A stretch of DNA of 64,000 nt from Armatimonadota bacterium (GTDB taxonomy: Bacteria > Armatimonadota > SYMT01). Below are positions 3,896-61,645 of the stretch, piece by piece. Each line of letters opens with the position of its first letter. Positions within the stretch are counted from its first letter, which is position 1. The DNA is taken from NCBI GenBank assembly GCA_046292385.1, contig JBKBRF010000028.1, forward strand, positions 1 through 64,000, in the 5' to 3' direction. The notes beneath the pieces were generated by a model. It was not told the origin of the DNA. It did no database searches and was given only the letters and a program-made list of their open reading frames with translations. A program made the translations under genes and the position numbers.

Positions 3896-5470
3896 TTAGT
3901 AGTTCGCGCCGCCGGCGTAGGGGGAGTCGCCGTAGGTGTAGATCGCGCCGTCCTTCTTCAGCAGGAAGTAGCTGTTGGTGCCGGAGCGCCCCCGGGCGAT
4001 GCCGGCGAATTGGCCCGGCTCGTCCGCGCCGCCGCCGTAGCCGGCTGCTCCGAACGAGTAGATGGAGCCGTTGGCCCGCACCAGCCAGTAGCCGGAGGCG
4101 TCGGCCAGGGAGGCCATGCCGGCGAAGTCGTTCAGGCCCTGCCCGCCCATCGAGCCGTGGAACGGCGCGTTGAACGAGAAGATGCCACCGTCGGAGGCGT
4201 AGAGCCAGTAGCCGTTGCCCGGCGTGGCGACCATCCCCTTGACGTTGGTGATGCCGAAGCTGCCGGTGGAGCCGTGGAACGGGGCGTTGAACGAGAAGAC
4301 GCCGCCGTCTTTCGCGACGGTCCAGTAGCCATTGCCGTCCGCGGTGGAGGCCATGCCGACCATCGGCTGGTTGAGCGGGGTTCCGCCCATGGAGCCGCGG
4401 AACGGCGCATTCCCGAAGCAGAAGATGCCGCCGTCGCTCGCCACCAGCCAGTAGCCGTCACCCTGCGGGCGCGCCGCGATGCCGACGATCGGCTGGTTCA
4501 GCGGCTGGCCGCCCATGGAGCCGTAGTAGGGCGCGTCTCCGAAGCAGAAGACGTAGCCTTCCGAGGAGACGATCCAGTAGCCGTTGCCGCTCGGGGTGCG
4601 CGCCATGCCGACCCGGTTCGGAATGGCGGCGGCGGAGGTGACCACCACCGCGTTCGCCACCAGGCGCTCGCTGCCGTCCTTGGGGCGGTTCTTGAGCGCC
4701 CCTCCCGCCCACAAGGTGGAGGAGCCGCCGCCGTCCAGGTTCAGCGCGTGCCGCACGTTGGCGTAATTCACCAGCGTCTGGCTCACTTCCGGCAGGCTCA
4801 TCCCGGCGGAGGTGGAGGAGTAGTCGACCACCATCAGCAGGAAGCGGTTATCGTAGGTCCACGCTGCGGCGGTGCGGGCGTTGCGCCCCTGGTAGAACGA
4901 GTGGTTGGGGAAGCTGATCCGCACGCCGTTCTGGATCAGGTCCGGCCCGCTCGCCATGATGTTCGGGGTGCCGAGGCTCCCCCACCCGTTGGCCGGCTTC
5001 GGGATCAGGTTCACGCCGGCGGTGCCGTTCGGGCCGGCGTTCGACTGGGTGATCGCCTGCTGGTCGTGCACGTCCGGCTTGGTGCCGTTGATGACGCTCC
5101 CGTTCACCTTGAGGTACTGCACGGAGCCGGTGCCGTCGAAGAACTGGCCGTTCACGGCGCCGACCGCCCGCCCCGTCCCGGTGGCGAAGCCGCTGGTGGT
5201 GCGGCGCGAGCCCCCGGTGAGGTAGGGGAAGCGGACCACCACCTCCGGGTCGTTCAGGTTGGCGTCCAGGATGTAGACGTCCTGAGGCGCGCCGAAGAGC
5301 GAGTTGTAGTGGAACTTCTTGTACCAGACGCCCTGGCCTACTTTCGTGACCGTCACCGAGTCGGCGGCGGCCGGCACGGCGAAGCGGGGCAGGAAGAGCA
5401 GGGCGCACAGGAGCAGCAGGCAGCGCAGCAGCGAGCGGGGCACGCAGCGTCGCGTGGCACGGGTGTTCAT
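3896..5470 (-). CDS. secreted phosphodiester glycosidase (NAGPA-like) with C-terminal GYWLVASDGGIF propeller-like repeats
   Basis: signal peptide; AVNGQFF, RNARTAAA and ALNLDGGGSSTL motifs; about 6 repeats of GYWLVxxDGGIFxFG-APFxGSMGG. Confidence 0.85.
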   Translation of the reverse strand: MNTRATRRCVPRSLLRCLLLLCALLFLPRFAVPAAADSVTVTKVGQGVWYKKFHYNSLFGAPQDVYILDANLNDPEVVVRFPYLTGGSRRTTSGFATGTGRAVGAVNGQFFDGTGSVQYLKVNGSVINGTKPDVHDQQAITQSNAGPNGTAGVNLIPKPANGWGSLGTPNIMASGPDLIQNGVRISFPNHSFYQGRNARTAAAWTYDNRFLLMVVDYSSTSAGMSLPEVSQTLVNYANVRHALNLDGGGSSTLWAGGALKNRPKDGSERLVANAVVVTSAAAIPNRVGMARTPSGNGYWIVSSEGYVFCFGDAPYYGSMGGQPLNQPIVGIAARPQGDGYWLVASDGGIFCFGNAPFRGSMGGTPLNQPMVGMASTADGNGYWTVAKDGGVFSFNAPFHGSTGSFGITNVKGMVATPGNGYWLYASDGGIFSFNAPFHGSMGGQGLNDFAGMASLADASGYWLVRANGSIYSFGAAGYGGGADEPGQFAGIARGRSGTNSYFLLKKDGAIYTYGDSPYAGGANY

Positions 5471-8842: not shown

Positions 8843-8918
8843 TGTTGCCAGGTTGCAGGTTGGCAGGTTTCAGGTTTGGAACCCTGGCCGGCGGGAAGCT
8901 GCCCTGCCAACCTGCAAC
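8843..8918. repeat. GCAGGTT / AACCTGC inverted heptamer arms
   Basis: gttgccaggttgcaggttggcaggtt ... gccaacctgcaac. Confidence 0.85.
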
Positions 8919-33686: not shown

Positions 33687-33773
33687 GGTTGCAGGTTGGC
33701 AAGTTGGCAGGTTGCAGGTTGGGTTCTCCGAAGGCGGGGCTCTTAACCTGGAACTTGCAACCTGCCAACCTGT
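33687..33773. repeat. GCAGGTT / AACCTGC inverted heptamer arms
   Basis: ggttgcaggttggcaagttggcaggttgcaggtt ... aacctggaacttgcaacctgccaacctg. Confidence 0.85.
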
Positions 33774-46694: not shown

Positions 46695-46847
46695 GCGGTG
46701 TTCTCCAGGTGCGGGCGGGAGGCGCGCCCACTCTCTTGTAGCACGCTCGCCTGGTGGGTTGGGAAGCCGCTGGTTGAACGACCCCCGATTCCAACGAAAG
46801 GGCGACCCGTTTCAGGGAACGCGGCGGTGCGCCCAGGGGTCTGCTAA

Positions 46848-46958
46848 GACGGAAGCACCTCCTGCCGGATTGTGCTCCTGTCTCCTCCAACCTGGCTGAG
46901 CTGGGTCGGAGAGTGGTGTAACTCTGCCCCGCCGGTTTTGCCGGCGGGGCCTTTTTTC
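46848..46958 (+). ncRNA. candidate small RNA with CUCCU (anti-SD) motifs
   Basis: three CTCCT motifs, two small hairpins and a strong terminator; TG-C-TAAGAC extended -10-like element upstream. Confidence 0.35.
46926..46957 (+). terminator. intrinsic terminator
   Basis: GCCCCGCCGG TTTTG CCGGCGGGGC CTTTTTT. Confidence 0.8.
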
Positions 46959-46985
46959 TCGCGCCGGCCGGCCGGCAGCGCGCCC

Positions 46986-47015
46986 GATGTATTTCTCACG
47001 GGGATCCGGCCTTTA
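46986..47015 (+). promoter_or_regulatory. candidate ECF promoter, copy 1
   Basis: GATGTATTTC-N15-CTTTA; same spacing as 48489-48518. Confidence 0.55.
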
Positions 47016-47091
47016 TCCGGGTGGAAGACGGCGGTGCCCTGGCGGCGAGACCGCCAATCGACCGCATCCTGGTTTACGAAGGAGATCACCC

Positions 47092-47703
47092 GTGGCTACT
47101 ACGCTTTCACTTCGCTTCCGCCGCGCCCTGGCGCTGGCGGCGGCGCTGACCGTGCTGCTCCCCGTCTTCGCCACCCCGGCGGAAGCCCGCCGTGGACGCG
47201 GTGGGGACGACCGCGGCGTCGGCGACGACCGCGGCGGCGACCGCGGCGGCGACGATGACCGGAACGACGACGGCGGCGGCCGTGGCCGGGGCCGGGGCGG
47301 CGATGACCGCGGCGGCAGCCGGGGACGAATCCGCAATGATTACCGCCTGGTACCGACTGCCGCCGGCGAGGAGGACGGCCTGTTCGGCAAGGCAAGGCTG
47401 GAGGCGCGGTCGGACCGCTTCCGACTGCGCGTGCAGGTGAAGACGCCGGTCCTGCCGCAGGGCACCGTGCTGCAGGCCTACGCGCTGGTGAACGGCGCGG
47501 GCGGCGTGCAGCGGCTCTTCCTCGGCTCCCTGGTGCTCCAGCCGAGCGACAACCACGCGAACCTGATGGAGGACAAGGTCGACCTGCGCGCTTTCCCCAG
47601 CGGCATCACCTCGCCGGGCCAGGTCGCCGGCTTCGAGGTGACGGACCAGGATTCCACCGTGACGCTGCTGACCTCGGTGCTGACGCGGTCGCGCAGCCGC
47701 TGA
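47092..47703 (+). CDS. secreted protein with Gly/Asp/Arg low-complexity (GGDDRG) repeats and a beta-rich C-domain
   Basis: AAGGAG RBS, GTG start, signal peptide ending AEA, RRGRGGDDRG repeats. Confidence 0.75.
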   Translation: MATTLSLRFRRALALAAALTVLLPVFATPAEARRGRGGDDRGVGDDRGGDRGGDDDRNDDGGGRGRGRGGDDRGGSRGRIRNDYRLVPTAAGEEDGLFGKARLEARSDRFRLRVQVKTPVLPQGTVLQAYALVNGAGGVQRLFLGSLVLQPSDNHANLMEDKVDLRAFPSGITSPGQVAGFEVTDQDSTVTLLTSVLTRSRSR

Positions 47704-47721
47704 TCTGCTGCGATCCGCGGT

Positions 47722-47757
47722 CCGGGACCGGAGGCGTTTCCGGTCCCGGGCCTTCTT
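47722..47757 (+). terminator. hairpin/terminator
   Basis: CCGGGACCGGA GGCGTT TCCGGTCCCGG followed by CCTTCTT. Confidence 0.55.
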
Positions 47758-47770
47758 CGCGTTTTGGGGT

Positions 47771-47800
47771 GACGTATCGGGTGGAGTGTTGCGTTTTGTA
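47771..47800 (+). promoter_or_regulatory. candidate ECF promoter, degenerate copy upstream of the sigma gene
   Basis: GACGTATCGG-N15-TTGTA. Confidence 0.4.
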
Positions 47801-47908
47801 TTATGGTGGCGCGGGCGTACCGCGGGATGCGCCGGGGGTATGCTGAGAGTGAGGACCCGGCCGAATTGTGGCTCTGGCTAACTACGGCGCCCGGTATGCG
47901 GTGAGAAG

Positions 47909-48490
47909 GTGTACGTGAGAGAGCAGGACTGGCCCCTTGTCCGCGCCTGTGAGGCGGGAGACCGGAAGGCGTGGGAGACGCTCATCCGGCGCTACGAGCG
48001 CCTGTTGATGGCGATCCCGCGCCGCTGCGGACTCTCCGAGGAAGACGCCGCCGACGTCTTCCAGACCGTCTGCATGAAGCTGGTGGAGAACCTCTCCCGG
48101 CTGCGAGACGAGCGACACCTCACCGGCTGGCTCATCACCACCGCCAAGCACGAGTCGTGGAACATCCACCGCAAGCGGAAGCGGCTGGAGGCGCTCGTCG
48201 AGCCGGAGGCGCTCGGCAGCACCGACGCGACGACCGACCTCCTCGTCTCCGACGAACTCCTCCCGGAAGAGGCGGTGCAGCGCCTGGAAGAAGCGCAGCT
48301 CGTGCGCGAGGCGCTGGAGGATCTGGGCGAGCGCTGCCGGCTGCTGCTGCAGCTCCTCTATCATTCCGATCCCCCGCTCACCTACGCGGAGGTGGCGGCG
48401 CGCCTGAACGTCTCCACCGGCGCGATCGGTCCCACCCGCGGCCGGTGCCTGGTCCAGCTCAAGAAGATCCTGGATCGCAACGGCTTTTGA
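47909..48490 (+). CDS. ECF-type RNA polymerase sigma-70 factor
   Basis: GDRKAWETLIRRY, DAADVFQTV, GWLITTAKHE; region 4 YAEVAARLNVSTGAIGPTRGRCL. Confidence 0.93.
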   Translation: MYVREQDWPLVRACEAGDRKAWETLIRRYERLLMAIPRRCGLSEEDAADVFQTVCMKLVENLSRLRDERHLTGWLITTAKHESWNIHRKRKRLEALVEPEALGSTDATTDLLVSDELLPEEAVQRLEEAQLVREALEDLGERCRLLLQLLYHSDPPLTYAEVAARLNVSTGAIGPTRGRCLVQLKKILDRNGF

Positions 48491-48518
48491 TGTATCTCCG
48501 CGCCGTTTCGGGTCTTTA
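48489..48518 (+). promoter_or_regulatory. candidate ECF promoter, copy 2 (overlaps the sigma stop)
   Basis: GATGTATCTC-N15-CTTTA. Confidence 0.55.
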
Positions 48519-48548
48519 ACCATGCGGATGGGCGCTGCCGGCCCACCT

Positions 48549-48640
48549 GTTGCAAGTTGGCAGGTTGCAGGTTAGCAGGTTGGGAACCCCCGCTGACGGG
48601 ATGCAAACCTGCAACCTGCCAACCTGCAACCTACCAACAG
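48549..48640. repeat. GCAGGTT / AACCTGC inverted heptamer arms
   Basis: gttgcaagttggcaggttgcaggttagcaggtt ... aacctgcaacctgccaacctgcaacctacc. Confidence 0.85.
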
Positions 48641-48674
48641 ACTTCAGCCCACCCGGACTTGAAGAGAGTTAACG

Positions 48675-49280
48675 ATGGCTACCCGCGACCACCTGACCCC
48701 TGAAGAGCTCCTTGCCTGTGCGGAGGGGAGCGCGGACGACCGCCTGCTGGCGCGGGTCCGCCGCCACCTGGAGAGCGGGTGCGCCGGCTGCTCCGCCGAG
48801 CTCGACTCCTGGACGCGGATGCACTCCGCGCTGCAGGCCGACCGGGAGCCGGGCGCGCCGGACTGGGTGCTGGAGCGCGCGCTGGGAATGATCGACCGCA
48901 TCGAGCGGCAGCCGACGCTGTGGGAGCGGATCACCGCCGCCCTGGTGTGGGACAGCCGCACGCAGCCGGTCCCTGCCGGGATCCGGGACGCGGGCAGCAA
49001 CGCCTTCTCACTGCTGTTCAAGGCCGACTCGATCCACGTCGACCTGCTCTGCGAGCGAGAGGGCAACTCCTGGCGGATCACCGGCCAGGTCCTCTCCGAG
49101 CCCCCGGCGGAGCTGCCGTGGCGCGCCAGCCTGCACGGGGGCGGCGAGAGCCGGGAAGCGGAGGTGGCGCGGGGGGGCGAGCTCTCCTTCGAGAACGTGC
49201 CACCCGGCACCTACAGCCTGACGCTCACCAGCCAGGGCCGCTCGATCCTGCTGCCGGACATCCGGCTCTCCCCCGCCTGA
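48675..49280 (+). CDS. putative soluble anti-sigma factor (zf-HC2-like N-terminus, carboxypeptidase-regulatory-like C-domain)
   Basis: HLTPEEL...HLESGCAGC; ITGQVL...GELSFENVPPGTYSL; no TM segment; follows the sigma gene. Confidence 0.72.
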   Translation: MATRDHLTPEELLACAEGSADDRLLARVRRHLESGCAGCSAELDSWTRMHSALQADREPGAPDWVLERALGMIDRIERQPTLWERITAALVWDSRTQPVPAGIRDAGSNAFSLLFKADSIHVDLLCEREGNSWRITGQVLSEPPAELPWRASLHGGGESREAEVARGGELSFENVPPGTYSLTLTSQGRSILLPDIRLSPA

Positions 49281-49287
49281 GCCCCGG

Positions 49288-52092
49288 ATGTCTTCTCTCG
49301 TTCAACAACTACTGGCGGCGTCCCCCGAGGAGCGCGCGCGCCTGCTCCGGGGCAAGCCCGACGCCGGCTTCTCCGACGTGAACGAGCTTGCCGAGCGGGC
49401 CCGCGCCGCCGCGCGCGCCAATCCGGCGGAGGGGCTGCAACTGGCGCAGACCGCCCGGGCGCTGGCGGAGGCGATTGCAGATCCCCGCGGGCGGGCGGTC
49501 GCCTCCCGCGCGCTGGGGGTGGCGCTCTGGGCGCGCGCCGGCTGGAGCGAGGCGCTGGCCGCCTTCACCGAGGGGGAGCGGGCGGCGCTCGACGCGGGCG
49601 ACGCGCTCCTGGCGGCGCAGGTGCCGATCCTGGCGGTCGAGGTGCTGGCGCAGCTCGGGCGGCATCCGGAGGCGCTCGCGCTGGCCGACCGCCTGGAAGC
49701 GCAGCTCCGGTCGCTGGGAGCGGAGCTGGACGCCGCCAAGGTGGTGGCGAACGCGGGGAACATCCACTTCCAGCGCGGCGAGTATGCCGCGGCGCTGCAG
49801 TCGTGGACCCAGGCGCTGGAGTTCTTCCGTGCGGCGGGTAACGAGCCGGCGGTCGCGCAGCTCCAGATCAACATCGCCAACGTCCTCACCCACCTGAACC
49901 GGCTGCCGGACGCCGTCCGCCGCTACGAGGAGGCCCGCAGCGCCTTCGAGGCCGCCGGGGTGGAGTCGGTGGTCGCGGGCGTCGAGGGAAACCTCGGCTT
50001 CCTGCAGTTCGTGGCCGGCCGCTATCCGGAGGCGCTGCGCAGACTGGAGCAGGCGCGGACCCGCTTCGAGCGGCTGGAGCTCCCGAAAGACCTGGCGAAG
50101 TGCGACCGCGAGACGGCGGACATCTACCTGGAGCTGAACCTGCTGCCGGAGGCGGTGGAGGCGTATGAGCGGGTGCGGCCGCTCTTCCAGGAGCTGCAGG
50201 TGCCGGTGGAGGCAGCCCGCTGCGACCTCGGGCTGGCGACCGCTCTCGGGCGGCTCGACCGGCGCGCAGAGGCGGAGGAGGCGCTGAAGCGCGCGGAGGC
50301 GGCGTTCCGCGCTGCCGGGAACGAGGTCGGCACCGCCCGGGCGGCGCTGCTGCGCGTGGAGCTGGAGCTGGAGGAGGCGCCGGACCGGGAGCGAAGCGCG
50401 CGCGCGGCGGAGCGTATCTTCCGCCGCCACGGGATGGTGCTCGCGGCGGCGCGGGCGCGGCTGGCGCCGCTCGAGCAGCGGGTGGAGGCGGGCGGAAGCC
50501 CGGTGCGGTCGCTGCGGCGCCTGCGGGCGGAGGTAGAGACCGAGGCGCTCTTCTCCCTGCGCTGGCGGGTGGAGGCGGCGCTGGCCCGCGCGGCGGTGAA
50601 TGCGGGGAAGCCCCGGTCCGCGCTGACGCACTACCGGCGAGCGGTGGAGGAGATCGAGCGGGCGCGGCACCTGCTGCCGGGGGAGGAGCTCCGCATCGCC
50701 TTCCTGCGGGACAAGACGCGCCTGCTGGAAGAGCTGCTGGGCCTCCTGCTCGACCGCGGCACGCCCGCGGCGCTGCGGGAGGCGTTCCGGCTGGCGGAGC
50801 GCGCCAAGTCGCGCGTGCTGGCGGAGCTGCTCTCCGGCCCGGTGGAGGCGCTGGAGAGCGACGACCCCGAGCGGCAGGCGCTGACGGCGCGGCTGGAGGA
50901 GCTCCGGGCGCAGCTGAAGTGGGACCACGACCGCCAGGAGACCGGCGGCGGAGAGGCGAGCCGCCTGCCTGCTGCCGACGCGGAGCTGCCGGAGCGGGTG
51001 CGCCGCCTGGAGCAGGAGTACCTGCAGACCCGCCGTCGGCTGCAGCTCTCCGGAGGTCGGCAGGTCGCCTTCGGCGAGCCGCCGGAGCTGCGCGCGCTTC
51101 AGTCGCTCCTGCAGGACGACGAGCAGCTGGTGGAGTACGTGACGGTGCGGGACGAGGTGATCGCCTTCGTGGTCGACCGCCGCCGCTTCCACGCGGTGCG
51201 CGGCCTCGCCTCCCGCCGGGAGGTGGAGGAGCTGGCCCGGCGGCTCGGCCTCCAGTGGGCGCGGGCGGCGTCGGGCGGGCTGCCGCCGCTGTTCCGGGAC
51301 CGGCTGCTCCAGAGCACGGAAGCGGTGCTGCGGGAGCTGTACGAGGCGCTGGTGGAGCCGCTGGAGCCGCTGCTCACCGGGCGACGGATCACGCTGATCC
51401 CGCACGGCGCGCTGCACGGCGTGCCGTTCCACGCGCTGCACGACGGGGTCGACTACCTCCTGGAGCGCTGGGAGATCGCCTACGCCCCCAGCGCCGGCGT
51501 CTGGCGCGCCTGCCGGCTGCGGCCGGAGCCGGAGACCCGGGAGTCGCTGCTCTACGGCGTCTCCGATCCGGCGCTGCCGCACGTGCGGTCGGAGGTCGAA
51601 GGCCTCGCCGCCCTGCTCGACAGCTCCCGCGCGCTGCACGACGGGCAGGCGACCCTCGCCGCCGTCCCCCGCGACGGAGCGTTCCGGTACCTGCACTTCG
51701 CCACGCATGCGGTCTTCCGTGAGGACAACCCGCTCTTCTCCGGCCTGAAGCTGGCGGACGGCTGGCTCATCGCGCACGATCTCTATCGCCGCCGGCTGGA
51801 GTGCTGCCTCGCCACCCTCTCCGCCTGCCGGACGGGGGTCAGCCACGTGGCTCCGGGCGACGAGACGCTGGGGTTGGTCCGCGGCTTCCTGCACGCGGGC
51901 GCCCGCGCGGTGCTGGTGAGCCTGTGGGTGGCGGACGATACGGCGACCGCGGAGCTGATGCAGCAGTGTTACGCGCGCCTGGCGGCGGGAGAGAGCCGCG
52001 CCGCAGCGCTGCGGGAGGCTCAGCGGGTGGTCCGCTCCCGTTATCCGCACCCGTTCCACTGGGCGCCGTTCGTGATGGTGGGAGCTTCCTGA
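49288..52092 (+). CDS. TPR-CHAT (caspase-like clan CD) protease
   Basis: TPR repeats; AERAKSR, LIPHGALHGVPFHAL, YAPSA, HFATH (His), LSACRTG (Cys), SLWVADD, HPFHWAPF. Confidence 0.93.
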   Translation: MSSLVQQLLAASPEERARLLRGKPDAGFSDVNELAERARAAARANPAEGLQLAQTARALAEAIADPRGRAVASRALGVALWARAGWSEALAAFTEGERAALDAGDALLAAQVPILAVEVLAQLGRHPEALALADRLEAQLRSLGAELDAAKVVANAGNIHFQRGEYAAALQSWTQALEFFRAAGNEPAVAQLQINIANVLTHLNRLPDAVRRYEEARSAFEAAGVESVVAGVEGNLGFLQFVAGRYPEALRRLEQARTRFERLELPKDLAKCDRETADIYLELNLLPEAVEAYERVRPLFQELQVPVEAARCDLGLATALGRLDRRAEAEEALKRAEAAFRAAGNEVGTARAALLRVELELEEAPDRERSARAAERIFRRHGMVLAAARARLAPLEQRVEAGGSPVRSLRRLRAEVETEALFSLRWRVEAALARAAVNAGKPRSALTHYRRAVEEIERARHLLPGEELRIAFLRDKTRLLEELLGLLLDRGTPAALREAFRLAERAKSRVLAELLSGPVEALESDDPERQALTARLEELRAQLKWDHDRQETGGGEASRLPAADAELPERVRRLEQEYLQTRRRLQLSGGRQVAFGEPPELRALQSLLQDDEQLVEYVTVRDEVIAFVVDRRRFHAVRGLASRREVEELARRLGLQWARAASGGLPPLFRDRLLQSTEAVLRELYEALVEPLEPLLTGRRITLIPHGALHGVPFHALHDGVDYLLERWEIAYAPSAGVWRACRLRPEPETRESLLYGVSDPALPHVRSEVEGLAALLDSSRALHDGQATLAAVPRDGAFRYLHFATHAVFREDNPLFSGLKLADGWLIAHDLYRRRLECCLATLSACRTGVSHVAPGDETLGLVRGFLHAGARAVLVSLWVADDTATAELMQQCYARLAAGESRAAALREAQRVVRSRYPHPFHWAPFVMVGAS

Positions 52093-52190
52093 GGGATGAG
52101 GGATGAGGGATGAGGGATGAAGGATGAGGGATGAATCCGGACCTTCCGTGTCCGGTCGCTCCTACTCTCTCGTTCTCCTTCTCTTTCTCG
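52091..52190 (+). repeat. (GGGATGA)n composite repeat copy with a G-quadruplex motif
   Basis: GGGATGA x4, then GGATGAGGGATGA-ATCCGGACC and a CT-rich tail. Confidence 0.85.
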
Positions 52191-52364
52191 GGAGCGCGCC
52201 GGGGCGAGCCCGGTTGGCGGGAGGAGCAGCCGCGCGCGAACAGTTCTTCGATCTTTCTTCTCCCCTCTTTTTCATCTAGTCACTGGCTGAAGTAACCTGG
52301 GAGTTCTGCCGACGAACGGTACGAAATGGTACCGATTTGCAGGGCCGGCTCCGGAGTCGAACCG

Positions 52365-53660
52365 ATGCGCTTAACCACGATTGGATTGGCAGTCTTGATC
52401 CTGCTGGCCGGGGCCACGGAGGCCCAGGCGCGGCGGGGGCGGAACCGGCTGAAGGAGCTCACCAAGAATGAGCTGGTGGTCCGCCTGGCTCCAGGGACCG
52501 ACGCTCAGAAGTTCGCCCGGGATTACCGGGTGAAGGTGATCTCCCAGGGCACCGGCAGCGGCCGCTACCGGGTGAAGATGCGGAACACCCGGGATGCCGC
52601 GCGCCTGCTGGCGAAGCGGCTGCAGGATACCCGCATCATCAGCGCGGACAAGAACCTCCCGGCCCCCTCGCCCCCGGGGGAGCAGGCGCAGTGGACCACC
52701 GCTTTCGACGGCGACCGCGGCCCGCGCGCCTACGACGGCCAGCTGGCGATCGGGCAGGTCCGCTTCACGCAGGCGCCGACGCTGGCAGACGGCGCCGGCG
52801 TGACGGTGGCGGTTCTCGATACCGGCATCTCCCGGCGGCACCCGCACCTGGCGGCGCAGACGGTGGAGGGCTGGAACTTCGTGGACGACAACGCCGACAC
52901 GGACGACCGCCCCTACCAGCTCGACCTGGACGGGGACCGGGTCCGGGATGAGGGCCTGGGCCACGGGACGGTGGTCGCCGGCCTCATCGCCCGCTTCGCC
53001 CCGAAAGCGACGCTGCTGCCGGTGCGCGTGCTGAACAGCGAGGGCATGGGAACGGTCTGGGACGCGGTGCGCGGCATCGAGTACGCCATCTCGAAGGGCG
53101 CGCGGGTCTTGAACCTGAGCTTTGGCGTGCAGGAGCGCTCCGAGATCCTGGAAGACGCGATCAAGGAGGCGGAAGACGCGGGGGTGTTGATCATCACCAC
53201 CGCCGGCAACCACGCCAGTTCTCGCCCGCAGTACCCGGCGAAGTACTCTCACGTGGTGGCGGTCGGCGCCGTGAACGCGGACGACAGCCGGGCGAAGTTC
53301 TCCAACTTCGGGAGCGACGTCGACATCTACGCGCCGGGAGTCGACGTGGTGAGCACCTTCTGGGACGGCACCTACGTGGCGTGGTCCGGCACCTCGTTCG
53401 CCGCGCCGATGGTGAGCGGCACCGCCGCCCTGATCCTCTCCCGCAACCCGGGCCTCTCGCTGGAGGACGTGGGCGACCTGATCGAAGACACCGCCCGCCG
53501 CGCAGAGGCCGCCCGCAGCCTGCGCCGCGGCCGAGGCGGTGATGACGGCGGCAACAGCGGCCCCGGAGGCGGCGACCGCACCGAAATCCTCGACGTCGAC
53601 TCCGCCGTCACCGCCGCGATCAACGGCGGGGGTGATGACGACGATGAGGATGACGATTAG
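52365..53660 (+). CDS. secreted S8 subtilisin-like serine protease
   Basis: signal peptide, prodomain; VLDTG (Asp), GHGT (His), AGN, SGTSFAAP (Ser); acidic tail. Confidence 0.93.
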   Translation: MRLTTIGLAVLILLAGATEAQARRGRNRLKELTKNELVVRLAPGTDAQKFARDYRVKVISQGTGSGRYRVKMRNTRDAARLLAKRLQDTRIISADKNLPAPSPPGEQAQWTTAFDGDRGPRAYDGQLAIGQVRFTQAPTLADGAGVTVAVLDTGISRRHPHLAAQTVEGWNFVDDNADTDDRPYQLDLDGDRVRDEGLGHGTVVAGLIARFAPKATLLPVRVLNSEGMGTVWDAVRGIEYAISKGARVLNLSFGVQERSEILEDAIKEAEDAGVLIITTAGNHASSRPQYPAKYSHVVAVGAVNADDSRAKFSNFGSDVDIYAPGVDVVSTFWDGTYVAWSGTSFAAPMVSGTAALILSRNPGLSLEDVGDLIEDTARRAEAARSLRRGRGGDDGGNSGPGGGDRTEILDVDSAVTAAINGGGDDDDEDDD

Positions 53661-53666
53661 GGGCTA

Positions 53667-53880
53667 ATTCACCACAGAGCGCACAGAGGACACGGAGATT
53701 CCGAACCAGGAGATTCACCGCGGAGAACGCAAAGGACGCAGAGAGGGGAACAGAAGAGCGTGACACCGGGTCGCTGTACGGGGCTCGAGACGCGCAGCCG
53801 GCCCCTTCCTCTTGGCGAGCTTGGCGTTCTTGGCGGTAAAGGCTGGTTCTCTCCGCGTCCTCTGCGTCTCTGCGGTGAAT
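53667..53880. repeat. inverted CACCGCAGAG/nonamer-type repeat pair
   Basis: attcaccacagagcgcacagaggacacggag and attcaccgcggagaacgcaaaggacgcagag versus ctccgcgtcctctgcgtctctgcggtgaat. Confidence 0.8.
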
Positions 53881-53904
53881 CCGGTTCGGATCCGGCCCGG
53901 AAGC

Positions 53905-56229
53905 TTACCGCCGGTGGAGCGTGAAGTAGATCCGCTCCGGCGTGAGCGGTAGGTCGTTGACCCAGGCGCCGGCAGCGTCGTGGACGGCGGCCTGGAGCGC
54001 GGCGAGGGTGGGGACGATCACCGGCTCGCCGATGCCTTTGACGCCGAACGGGCCGTTCTCGCTCGGGACCTCCACGTAGCGGTTGCGCAGCACCGGCGTG
54101 TCCATCGGGGTGGGCAGGCGGTAGTCGGAGAGGTGCGTGTTGCGGTTGCGGCCGCCCTGGATCTGCATCTCCTCCATCCAGCCCCAGGAGAGCCCCTGCA
54201 CCGCGCCGCCGTCCATCTGCCCCTCCACCTCGTACGGGTTGACGGCGAGGCCGACGTCGAGCGACTGGTAGAGCTCCAGCGCCTCCATCACGCCGGTGTC
54301 CGGGTCGACCCGCACCTTCACGATCTGGGCGGAGATCACCGGGTGGCTCGGCTCATTGGCGAAGGTGCCGGTGCCGACCAGTGGCCCGCCGATGGTGCGG
54401 AGGGCGACCTGTCCCAGCTCCGCCAGGGTGACGCTGTTCTCCGGATCGTCCTTCACCGCGATGCGGCCGATGCGCCGGCCCTGCTCGCTGGGCCAGACGT
54501 CCTGCACCAGGGAGTCTTCGTCCGCTTCCAGGTGCTCCGCCGCGAGGGCGAGCATCTTGCGGCGCAGGTCTTCCGCGGCGCGCTTGACGGCGTTCCCCAT
54601 GGAGAAGAGGACGACGGAGCCGCCGGAGCCGGTGGCGTAGGGGGCGCTGTCGGTGTCGCCGCGGACCACGCGCACCGCCTCGTACGGCACGCCGGTCACC
54701 TCCGCCGCGATCTGGGCGAAGCCGGTGTCGGTGCCGGTGATGTCCATGGCGCCGGAGAAGACCTTGAGCGTGCCGTCCTCGCCGAGGGAGCAGACGGCGC
54801 TGCCGGGGCCGGCGCCGTTGGTCCACTCGCCCACGGCGACACCCCAGCCTTCGTTCGGACCCTTCCGGCGCTCGCTCCAGCCCGCCAGCTCGGCGGCGGT
54901 CCTCAGCGTCTCCTTGAACGCCACCCGGCGGAGAGGGGCTCGGTCATTGACCCGCTTCTCGCCTTCCTCGACCATGTTCCGGAGGCGGAATTCGACCGGG
55001 TCCATGCCGATCGCGTCGGCGCAGCGGTTGAGGTTCGCCTCGGAGGCGTAGGTGCCCTGCGGCGCCCCGGGGGCGCGGTAGGCGGCGGTGCCCGGCTTGT
55101 TGGTGTAGATGCCGTAGGCGTCCCACTTGACGTTCCGGAAGCCGTAGACGCCGATGATGCGGCTGGTGGCGTGGATGCTGGCGCCGGGGACGTTGCCGCA
55201 GTCCCACAGGCCGACCGCCTGGCGCGCGGTGACGGTGCCGTCCTTCTTCACGCCGGTCTTCACCCAGATCGTGGCGGCGGGGGCGGGACGGCCGTCGAGC
55301 ATCTCCTCTTCGCGGCTGTAGACGATCTTTACCGGGCGGCCGGTCATCTGCGCCAGGAGGACGGCGTAGGGGTGGACCAGGGTGCCGAACTTACCGCCGA
55401 AGCCGCCGCCGATCGTCTGGCCGATCACGTTGATGTCGGACGCGGGGATGCCAAGGCTGCTGGCAACGCCGCTGCGGATGGCGAAGATGCTCTGGGTGCT
55501 GGTCCAGATCGTCACCTTGCCGCTGGCGTCGACCCGCGCCACGCAGGCGTGCGGCTCGATGTAGGTCTGGTGGACGCGCGGGATGCGGTAGACGTCTTCC
55601 AGCACGAAGTCGGCCTCCGCGAAGCCGGCCTCCACGTCGCCTGCTTCGAAATGCGCCTCCTGCGCCACGTTCCCCCAGCGGCCCAGCTCCGCCCACGGGC
55701 TGCCGGGAACGGCGTCGACCGTCTTCGCGTCGTCCCGAAGCCGCGGCGACTCCGGCCGGATGCCCTGCTCCTCCGTATCGACCGGGGCGAGCAGCTCCCA
55801 CTCCACCTCGATCGCGTTCACGCCGTCCCGCGCGATCTCCGGCGAGACAGCGCAGACGCAGGCGATCTTCTCCCCCTCGTAGAGCACCACGTCGGAGGCG
55901 AAGAGACTCTGGGAGAGGCGGAAGCCGTGGACGGTGTCGACCGTCTCCATCGTCCGCTCGCCGCCGAGCGACTCCTCCGTGAGCACCTTGACCACCCCGG
56001 GGATCGCTTCTGCCCGGCGGGTGTCGATCCGCTTGATCCGCGCGTGGCCGTGCGGGCTGTGCAGGAAGGTGGCCCAGAGCTGCCCGGGCAGGTTCACGTC
56101 CGCCGCGTAGCGGGCCGCGCCGGTCACCTTGTCGACGGCGTCGACGCGCGGGACCGGCTTGCCGAGCACGTCGTACTCCGGCGTCTCGTGGGGGGACTGC
56201 GGCTGCGGTCGGTGGAGGAGATCGGTCAT
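53905..56229 (-). CDS. xanthine dehydrogenase/CoxL-family molybdopterin-binding subunit
   Basis: KVTGAARYAAD, SPHGHARI, IGGGFGGK, AYRAPG, GQMDGGAVQG, KGIGEP, LPLTPER. Confidence 0.92.
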   Translation of the reverse strand: MTDLLHRPQPQSPHETPEYDVLGKPVPRVDAVDKVTGAARYAADVNLPGQLWATFLHSPHGHARIKRIDTRRAEAIPGVVKVLTEESLGGERTMETVDTVHGFRLSQSLFASDVVLYEGEKIACVCAVSPEIARDGVNAIEVEWELLAPVDTEEQGIRPESPRLRDDAKTVDAVPGSPWAELGRWGNVAQEAHFEAGDVEAGFAEADFVLEDVYRIPRVHQTYIEPHACVARVDASGKVTIWTSTQSIFAIRSGVASSLGIPASDINVIGQTIGGGFGGKFGTLVHPYAVLLAQMTGRPVKIVYSREEEMLDGRPAPAATIWVKTGVKKDGTVTARQAVGLWDCGNVPGASIHATSRIIGVYGFRNVKWDAYGIYTNKPGTAAYRAPGAPQGTYASEANLNRCADAIGMDPVEFRLRNMVEEGEKRVNDRAPLRRVAFKETLRTAAELAGWSERRKGPNEGWGVAVGEWTNGAGPGSAVCSLGEDGTLKVFSGAMDITGTDTGFAQIAAEVTGVPYEAVRVVRGDTDSAPYATGSGGSVVLFSMGNAVKRAAEDLRRKMLALAAEHLEADEDSLVQDVWPSEQGRRIGRIAVKDDPENSVTLAELGQVALRTIGGPLVGTGTFANEPSHPVISAQIVKVRVDPDTGVMEALELYQSLDVGLAVNPYEVEGQMDGGAVQGLSWGWMEEMQIQGGRNRNTHLSDYRLPTPMDTPVLRNRYVEVPSENGPFGVKGIGEPVIVPTLAALQAAVHDAAGAWVNDLPLTPERIYFTLHRR

Positions 56230-61284: not shown

Positions 61285-61343
61285 GTTAGCAGGTTGCAGG
61301 TTAGCAGGTTGCAGGTTAGCAGGTTGCAGGCTGGCAGGTTGCG
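61285..61343 (-). repeat. AACCTGC heptamer array upstream of the minus-strand gene
   Basis: gttagcaggttgcaggttagcaggttgcaggttagcaggttgcagg on the + strand. Confidence 0.9.
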
Positions 61344-61645
61344 GGTGGCGTGGTGGGTTCAGGGGAAGACCACCAGTAACCAAACCTCCGCCGACGCCAC
61401 CGGCGGCCTCACGGGGGCATCCGGGAAGAACTCACCCCTTTGCGAAAGCAGGAACCGGCGCGAGAGGGAGGCCGAGCAAGCTTGTCACTCCGGCAGTCCC
61501 GCCTGGCTTCGCCCCCGAGTCGAGCGGACGCTACGCCCCGAATGGCTGCCGAACGCGCGCATCGGCACGGGATCGTGCCCTCCGCGGGGAGCGTCAGATC
61601 CTGCCAACACTTCCCGGATGCACCGCTCATGCGTTTAACGCACTG

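Follow-up and report, generated by a model that had tools for sequence, protein, structure and literature searches.

Analysis of a 64,000-nucleotide (nt) stretch of contig JBKBRF010000028.1 (the window), part of a 7.04-Mb, 91-contig genome of an Armatimonadota bacterium, identified a signalling cassette that, by its gene neighbourhood, is of the ECF54 type. The cassette contains five genes, all on the plus strand, which encode in this order a Gly/Asp-rich secreted protein, a sigma factor of the extracytoplasmic function (ECF) class, the product of an open reading frame (ORF) here called ORF3, a TPR-CHAT caspase-like protease and an S8 subtilase. Genes and domains were called from an ORF listing combined with Pfam and NCBIfam scans of the window; these confirm the five co-oriented genes of a preliminary description made from the sequence. 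The recurrence of this gene order in several phyla puts the arrangement well outside what chance would give. The sigma factor, the anti-sigma candidate ORF3, the CHAT protease and the subtilase very probably form one module. The sequence and predicted fold of ORF3 support its assignment as a soluble anti-sigma-domain protein, and promoters dependent on the cassette sigma factor are predicted ahead of both the Gly/Asp gene and the ORF3-CHAT pair.

Conservation of the cassette

Related loci were collected by a scan of one genome per species in 185,579 species, with the CHAT alignment as query. The scan gave 211 CHAT relatives, and the best 80 loci, picked by similarity of CHAT and not of ORF3, were analysed; these relatives are not independent of one another. 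Among the 80 loci, 33 belong to Armatimonadota, 24 to Chloroflexota and 18 to Acidobacteriota, and one each to Acidimicrobiia, Deinococcus and a genome labelled Clostridia. Gene presence was counted by scoring all open frames in the 80 loci, with the testable loci as the denominator.

ORF3 stands directly upstream of CHAT in 60/60 testable loci. This count comprises 58 loci found by script and two (L077 and L089) read from the table, which escaped the script since the stop-to-stop frame of CHAT extends upstream. The median gap between the two ORFs is 7 nt (at most 20 nt in 40/59 loci), and on adjacency and spacing ORF3 and CHAT are inseparable. A related sigma factor is encoded within 3.5 kb upstream in 48 of the 55 loci scored (homologues at 1e-29 to 6e-64), in two cases on the opposite strand, and an S8 gene follows CHAT in 64/67 loci, the misses being L038, where S8 is upstream, L088 and L092. 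All four core genes are present in 43/51 loci, and the preliminary description had likewise stated that sigma/CHAT/S8 neighbourhoods occur in other phyla. The order sigma, ORF3, CHAT, S8 is also found in six loci of same-phylum relatives. All four are likewise present in the Acidimicrobiia locus (L089), and the cultivable genus Chthonomonas carries the cassette as well (L048).

The remaining gaps are wider, with medians of 81 nt between sigma and ORF3 (20 nt or less in 3/46 loci) and 88.5 nt between CHAT and S8; the corresponding distances in the window are 184 nt for sigma-ORF3, 7 nt for ORF3-CHAT and 233 nt for CHAT-S8. A tblastn search found the cassette in a single copy in its genome. One Chloroflexota locus (L055:3090-5965) has two tandem sigma-ORF3 pairs before one CHAT-S8 pair, with the promoter motif described below ahead of each ORF3.

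ECF sigma factor and the anti-sigma candidate ORF3

The sigma factor contains regions sigma-2 and sigma-4 only (Pfam Sigma70_r2, 1.2e-11; r4, 8.2e-7) and scores 88.7 bits against TIGR02937, for which the cut-off is 42.9. ORF3 matched no family at an E-value of 0.01; the Pfam CarboxypepD_reg match, at 0.012, lies below the cut-off, and a word-indexed protein search returned the query alone. Exhaustive HMMER searching retrieved 1396 cluster representatives at E≤1e-3, of which 165 reached 1e-10 and 24 reached 1e-30; nearly all are about 200 amino acids (aa) long and aligned end to end.

A family profile built on a 66-member alignment was compared with PDB chains. Its N-terminal part matched the anti-sigma domains of ChrR (2q1z_B, 1.5e-5, residues 1-85), RsiW (5wuq_C, 8.9e-5, residues 15-80) and RslA (3hug_B, 7.6e-4, residues 14-64), as well as the cytoplasmic N-terminal domain of DdvA (8rlz_A, 1.3e-3, residues 6-47), while residues 132-187 matched the CarboxypepD_reg-like sandwiches of NOMO (1.2e-13). 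The AlphaFold2 (AF2) model, with a predicted local distance difference test (pLDDT) score of 89.7, places helices at residues 9-16, 22-33, 37-56 and 63-75 and a beta-sandwich at 110-198. In a Foldseek search with this model ChrR was the top match (probability 0.97, E 5.5e-3), and nothing was found at E≤0.001. ORF3 thus reads as a zinc-type anti-sigma domain (about residues 1-75), a junction motif and a CarboxypepD_reg-like beta-sandwich (about 110-198).

The zinc-type motif is H31-x4-C36-x2-C39 (HLESGCAGC). Its three ligands are kept in at least 90% of the 66 aligned family members, and the consensus also has H6. The spacing from His to the first Cys is one residue above the canonical HxxxCxxC, which occurs in some relatives. 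ORF3 has no hydrophobic stretch (maximum 0.82). The preliminary description had read the gene after sigma as a soluble anti-sigma factor with a zinc motif and no transmembrane helix, and the profile matches, the model and the hydropathy all sustain that reading. Among 55 cassette copies the zinc motif is present in 37, and the best-kept residues lie elsewhere: the junction motif, formed by A88, L90, D93, S94, G102 and R104, has A88 in 53 copies, D93 in 53, S94 in 48, G102 in 47 and R104 in 54. These residues sit in the interdomain junction, partly at lower confidence in the model, and not at the zinc site.

TPR-CHAT protease

The protease has a CHAT domain (Pfam, 9.7e-61) and TPR repeats (TPR_12, 3e-22). 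Its AF2 model (pLDDT 91.4; predicted template modelling score, pTM, 0.88) consists of some 590 residues of helical repeats and the CHAT domain. Residues H803, H807 and C847 are invariant in 55/55 cassette homologues; the His/Cys dyad recognised beforehand corresponds to H807 and C847. No N-terminal signal peptide was found, which supports a cytoplasmic location as predicted from the sequence. The best Foldseek match is Csx29 in Csx30-bound Craspase (8eey_B, 1.7e-17), followed by human separase (9hma, 3.7e-15) and, lower, DdvA (8rw5, 2.4e-10). Against the Csx29 model itself the protein scores 35.5 bits with a cut-off of 300 and is not a Csx29 equivalog. A complex prediction for CHAT residues 61-934 with ORF3 residues 76-201, in which both chains were shortened, gave scores of 0.07 and 0.01 against a mark of 0.32, which speaks neither for nor against an interaction.

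The genome encodes a second CHAT-domain protein outside any copy of the cassette (C18:3448-4254, minus strand; locus L001). Its open frame is 782 aa long, and it is 36% identical to the cassette protease across the CHAT domain.

Promoter motif and predicted regulon

A Gibbs search limited to the sequence between the sigma stop codon and the ORF3 start yielded ATGTATTTTT with CTCTGT, CACTGT or CTCTAT behind it in a constant register. This is a conserved predicted promoter of ECF type (TGTATTTTT, about 14 nt, CTCTGT) that is found between sigma and ORF3 and not ahead of sigma. The motif matrix was built from loci of other genomes, without the window, and sites were counted at 12 bits or more. 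Such sites occur upstream of ORF3 in 44/62 loci, which are the training set, upstream of S8 in 5/71 and upstream of sigma in 1/51. The controls gave 0/68 for CHAT-internal sequence, 0/62 for the reverse strand of ORF3-upstream regions and 0/71 for that of S8-upstream regions; the 9/51 hits on the reverse strand of sigma-upstream regions correspond to divergent neighbour genes. Counts independent of the matrix training are limited to the controls, the sets for S8 and for sigma, and the scan of the cassette's own genome.

At 14 bits or more, 91 sites were found over 865,049 bases of the loci: 48 before ORF3, six before S8, one before a Gly/Asp homologue (L022) and 36 before other genes. Pfam was run on 15 motif-preceded proteins, namely 14 of the other targets and the L022 homologue. 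Five DUF4382/DUF5666 lipoproteins, an FG-GAP protein, two glycosyltransferases, a GH9-CBM3 cellulase, a Crp-type regulator and others were recognised, and three of the 15, the L022 homologue among them, had no Pfam match. The predicted targets in the related loci are mostly exported or envelope proteins.

In the scan of the cassette's own genome the site at 46987, which precedes the start of the Gly/Asp gene by 105 nt, ranks first of 14,080,628 positions, with 17.2 bits. The first bases of the site at 48490 overlap the sigma stop codon, and its register is that of the conserved motif. TGTAT-N18-CTTTAWCC is common to both sites, in the same register; this pattern, drawn up after the fact, occurs nowhere else in the genome and in 0/100 shuffles of the window. 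The motif takes the form TGTAT(T/C)..., about 14 nt, CT(C/T)T(G/A), and the window reads GTATCTC and GTATTTC; exact GTATCAG is found in L022 and L048. A sigma-70 consensus scan of 46700-54000 called no promoter.

The preliminary description had proposed that the released sigma factor drives the secreted proteins and its own locus. For the secreted proteins this finds backing in the predicted promoter before the Gly/Asp gene, the best motif match genome-wide. For the cassette itself it stands in part: a promoter is predicted before ORF3-CHAT, whereas the motif precedes sigma in only one of the 51 loci noted above. Because the conserved promoter lies after sigma and ahead of ORF3, feedback would be mainly negative, by re-synthesis of the inhibitor.

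The predicted ORF3 leader contains a 90-nt hairpin of inverted heptads (-71.9 kcal/mol, z -5.5), in which two heptad arrays face each other. Together with the hairpin that follows the Gly/Asp gene, it may modulate expression. The GCAGGTT/GCAAGTT heptad family is dispersed and intergenic, with 66 arrays of at least three units in the genome, among them arrays at 8844-8876, 33687-33722 and 61285-61346 of the window and at C28:11501 and 45260.

Gly/Asp-rich protein and S8 subtilase

The Gly/Asp gene starts with GTG, 6 nt downstream of AAGGAG. Its product has a signal-peptide-like N-terminus (hydropathy maximum 2.01 at residue 12), followed by a low-complexity Gly/Asp/Arg stretch and a beta-rich domain of about 125 aa. 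There was no Pfam or NCBIfam match to the protein, and a word-indexed search of the domain against proteins returned the query alone. A naming of the C-terminal domain as DUF5666-like or CHRD-like was rejected, there being no Pfam match and the structure leads falling below the naming bar. Since a homologue occurs in 1/80 related loci (L022, where it is preceded by a motif site of 14.3 bits), the protein is not a core part of the cassette, and its gene appears to be a lineage-specific predicted target. The hairpin after the Gly/Asp gene (-40.7 kcal/mol, z -3.0) has a weak T tract and was not called in a consensus terminator scan; it is possibly a leaky terminator before sigma.

The subtilase matches Peptidase_S8 at 1.9e-50 across profile positions 1-282 of 288. 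The motifs of its D/H/S triad (VLDTG, HGT, GTS) are readable, and both the intact triad and the signal peptide ascribed to it earlier are present. An alternative ATG start at 52365 (431 aa, 272-nt spacer), from which the signal peptide would be exactly N-terminal, is more likely than the start at 52326. The C-terminus is a Gly/Asp-rich acidic tail. Complete S8 homologues, among those listed, all have a signal-peptide-like or lipoprotein-like N-terminus. The TGAGGGA repeat begins at the CHAT stop codon, in the spacer of 233-272 nt before S8, and is one of 13 arrays genome-wide; a terminator scan called no site in this spacer.

An exact 8-mer, RRGRGGDD, occurs in the Gly/Asp protein just after the predicted signal-peptide cleavage site (residues 33-40, 47188-47211) and a second time where the C-terminal tail of S8 begins (residues 400-407, 53523-53546); S8 also has RRGR directly after its own signal peptide. 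The 8-mer, which was not seen in the S8 homologues of other loci, may be a common processing site or mere low complexity. Acidobacterial S8 homologues (L035, L046, L051, L052, L060 and others) have a Pro/Thr/Ser-rich C-terminal linker with a short basic tip, for example KRGRH, and the gene after the acidobacterial S8 encodes a secreted FG-GAP protein some 700 aa long and carries the promoter motif.

Proposed mechanism and alternative explanations

On the computed gene and domain identities, location, synteny, spacing and promoter motif we base the following scheme. The sigma factor would be made from its own promoter, not of ECF type, and would be bound and held inactive by the N-terminal helical domain of ORF3. 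ORF3 would be co-translated with the cytoplasmic TPR-CHAT protease, which would bind and recognise it through the C-terminal beta-sandwich and the junction loop AxLxFDS...GxR. This loop (residues 88-104) is a candidate recognition or cleavage site, proposed because the Craspase substrate Csx30 is cut in a flexible loop of the domain that docks on CHAT and because the junction is the best-kept part of ORF3. A cue from the cytoplasm, sensed through the long TPR array, would switch CHAT on; active CHAT would cut ORF3, the remnant would be degraded and sigma would be released. Cleavage of ORF3 by CHAT to free sigma is in our estimate an even call. The free sigma factor would transcribe the Gly/Asp gene and ORF3-CHAT, probably together with S8, from promoters of the GTAT...CT(C/T)T type, the output would be exported proteins including the subtilase, and newly made ORF3 would end the response as negative feedback.

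Several observations weigh against this scheme. Seven of the 55 loci have no sigma gene within 3.5 kb upstream; in L038 it is downstream, and in the other six there is none in the flank. The zinc ligands are absent in 18/55 ORF3 homologues, the closest relative included, so ORF3 is not uniform at its sigma-binding end. The frequency of the motif before ORF3 (44/62) arises partly by construction, because the matrix was trained on ORF3-upstream regions, and the site at 48490 is the weaker match (11.1 bits, with 34 of the 14,080,628 genome positions as high). The long repeat hairpin stands between this site and ORF3. The motif upstream of ORF3-CHAT places CHAT in the predicted regulon, which fits CHAT as an output equally well. 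A purely cytoplasmic switch leaves the role of the conserved secreted subtilase unexplained, and this is the least explained part of the scheme.

ORF3 could instead be an ordinary sensing anti-sigma factor, with CHAT and S8 as products of the regulon, two proteases (one inside and one outside the cell) made when required and without a part in regulating the switch. Sensing would then rest on zinc-thiol redox chemistry, as in RsrA or in ChrR, which responds to singlet oxygen, or on a ligand bound to the beta-sandwich. The H/C/C motif kept in at least 90% of the 66 family members, the position of ChrR as the best match of ORF3 in both sequence and fold, and the predicted sigma-dependent promoter that drives ORF3-CHAT and so puts CHAT in the regulon would all be accommodated. 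Yet the zinc motif is missing in 18/55 copies, and ORF3 still stands beside CHAT in 60/60 loci, as a rule within 20 nt; the most-kept residues of ORF3 lie outside the zinc site, and no other cassette gene provides the zinc-less members with a release mechanism. We consider an ordinary sensing anti-sigma factor rather unlikely.

The conservation of a secreted subtilase beside a cytoplasmic module (64/67 loci) and the promoter motif on genes of exported proteins would be accounted for by a peptide loop, in which S8 trims exported pro-proteins such as the Gly/Asp protein, a fragment re-enters and binds the TPR array in the manner of Rap or NprR, and CHAT destroys ORF3, so that the signal sensed would be cell density or what the cassette itself exports. 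The TPR profile does match the NprR and Rap receptors, and RRGRGGDD stands near predicted processing points in both the Gly/Asp protein and the tail of S8; but these receptor matches are of the generic kind expected between repeats and score below the ones to designed TPRs, and the shared 8-mer is low-complexity and lineage-specific. With the Gly/Asp protein in 1/80 loci and the other predicted targets large and unrelated, such a loop seems improbable. Its fuller form, in which CHAT senses the fragment and cuts ORF3 at D93...R104, would make the cassette a CRISPR-independent 'craspase' serving as a quorum or environment switch, and we rate this as a distinctly improbable case. CHAT might also have a non-proteolytic role, either as a TPR scaffold or as an anti-anti-sigma factor, and sequester ORF3 by partner switching. 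The long TPR array is a protein-binding module and ORF3 and CHAT appear translationally coupled, as such a role would suggest, but the catalytic His/Cys pair is invariant in 55/55 homologues from at least four phyla, which argues for retained catalysis and makes a scaffold highly improbable.

Genomic context

The features of the cassette are collected in Table 1.

Table 1. Predicted genes, promoters and repeats of the cassette (positions in the window)
Feature	Position	Strand	Basis
Predicted sigma-dependent promoter of the Gly/Asp gene	46987..47018	+	ATGTATTTC, N, CTTTATCC; matrix from other genomes
Gly/Asp/Arg-rich secreted protein, 203 aa	47092..47703	+	ORF, ribosome-binding site, hydropathy
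G+C-rich hairpin	47716..47752	+	Fold energy
ECF sigma factor, 193 aa	47909..48490	+	Pfam r2/r4, TIGR02937
Predicted sigma-dependent promoter of ORF3-CHAT	48490..48521	+	ATGTATCTCC, N, CTTTAACC; motif register
Inverted GCAGGTT-type heptad pair, long hairpin	48549..48638	+	TRF, fold energy
ORF3, soluble anti-sigma candidate, 201 aa	48675..49280	+	Profile, AF2, Foldseek
TPR-CHAT caspase-like protease, 934 aa	49288..52092	+	Pfam, AF2, Foldseek
TGAGGGA x 6.4 tandem repeat	52090..52134	+	TRF
Secreted S8 subtilase, 444 aa	52326..53660	+	Pfam, motifs, signal peptide

Ordinary genes flank the cassette, namely those of a PhoD phosphatase and of an AlkZ-like glycosylase on the upstream side and, downstream, a large molybdopterin oxidoreductase-like ORF. 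PADLOC matched no defence-system model to the locus, save a generic subtilase/IetS for S8. On the far side of the window, at 4294-4613, there is a 126-bp tandem repeat of 2.1 copies with 75-76% matches.

The label 'CRISPR-free' in the preliminary description is right for the cassette and its flanks, which contain no cas gene, and not for the contig. A type I-C set (Cas5c, 1.4e-47; Cas7/Csd2, 2.5e-87; Cas4, 5.3e-37; Cas1c, 2.1e-136) lies outside the window, at about 75.5-82 kb; the distance to S8 is about 22 kb and is taken up by unrelated genes. The set is accompanied by an array in which a 37-nt repeat is present about 14 times (set and array at C28:75480-81988, L099). This Cas1c is the sole Cas1 match in the genome. 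The cas genes found on the contig are of type I-C only, no genome search aimed at Cas7-11 itself having been made. We treat the proximity of the type I-C set as coincidence; the cassette has no link to type III-E CRISPR.

Comparison with known systems

The neighbourhood is already in print as the computationally catalogued group ECF54, in which the sigma gene is accompanied by a CarboxypepD_reg-like protein at position +1, a subtilase and a TPR-CHAT protein (PMC7826278, PMC8999054). The group is described as 100% Actinobacteria with a 'lack of putative AS factor', and prints the motif GTATCAG at -35 and CTCC at -10 (PMC7826278); regulation by proteolysis was proposed for it earlier. The cassette shares with ECF54 the sigma factor followed by a CarboxypepD_reg-like +1 protein, the TPR-CHAT protease and the subtilase, and its predicted promoter motif, with GTATC... 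at -35 and a CT-rich -10 element, resembles the printed one. Unlike ECF54 as described, the present copy is in Armatimonadota, with the best 80 relatives mostly in Armatimonadota, Acidobacteriota and Chloroflexota, the +1 protein has an anti-sigma domain, and the conserved predicted promoter stands after sigma and ahead of the +1 gene. What is new here is thus the anti-sigma domain of the +1 protein, the spread beyond Actinobacteria, the promoter after sigma, the junction motif and a predicted local regulon. A literature search for experiments with stand-alone CHAT/anti-sigma systems, outside of which most subscription journals lay, brought up nothing besides DdvA, Craspase, the ECF classification and a single review.

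ORF3 resembles ChrR, the partner of SigE in Rhodobacter sphaeroides (PDB 2q1z, 2z2s), in being a soluble two-domain protein with an N-terminal zinc domain (H6, H31, C, C) and a beta-rich C-terminus. The C-terminal domain is a cupin in ChrR and a CarboxypepD_reg-like sandwich in ORF3, and ChrR, unlike ORF3, has no partner protease gene.

In the DdvS/DdvA system of Myxococcus xanthus an ECF sigma factor is under the control of a zinc-bound anti-sigma domain coupled to TPR-CHAT; DdvA is one transmembrane chain with a periplasmic TPR-CHAT part and controls a CBASS/CRISPR island (PMC11506125; PDB 8rlz, 8rot, 8rw5). The ORF3 profile matches 8rlz_A (1.3e-3) and the CHAT model matches 8rw5 (2.4e-10). 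In contrast to DdvA, the anti-sigma domain and TPR-CHAT are here predicted to be two soluble cytoplasmic proteins, encoded 7 nt apart, so that a membrane step would not be needed, and the predicted targets are exported proteins.

In Craspase (Cas7-11, Csx29, Csx30 and CASP-sigma) sigma is bound by Csx30 through its N-terminal domain, and the C-terminal domain, which docks on CHAT, is cut in a flexible loop (PMC10028731). The preliminary description drew an analogy with this system, and two parts of it stand: the fold of the cytoplasmic TPR-CHAT protease, with its His/Cys dyad, is nearest to that of Csx29, and ORF3 has an anti-sigma domain, so that in both systems a two-domain inhibitor would hold an ECF-like sigma factor by its N-terminal part, and the logic of release by a protease cut is proposed here too. 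The analogy does not extend to identity with Csx29, for which the score falls short (35.5 against 300 bits). Nor are Cas7-11 or CRISPR RNA (crRNA) present at the cassette (Cas7-11 was not searched for genome-wide), from which it follows that the activating signal would not be a target RNA. ORF3 has a classical zinc-type anti-sigma domain, as which Csx30 is not described, and the secreted S8 subtilase belongs to the cassette.

The 211 CHAT relatives among 185,579 species genomes and the 1396 representatives of the ORF3 family indicate how far such genes are spread. The cassette provides a candidate for the inhibitor that the ECF54 literature calls missing, together with a candidate loop (D93, R104), two predicted promoters ready for reporter constructs and a predicted regulon whose products are exported; a three-part soluble switch from protease to transcription could serve as a module in synthetic biology. 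Sigma release gated by CHAT has been shown for Craspase only and proposed for DdvA, and beside these two the cassette would represent a minimal, all-soluble and CRISPR-free form of protease-gated sigma release.

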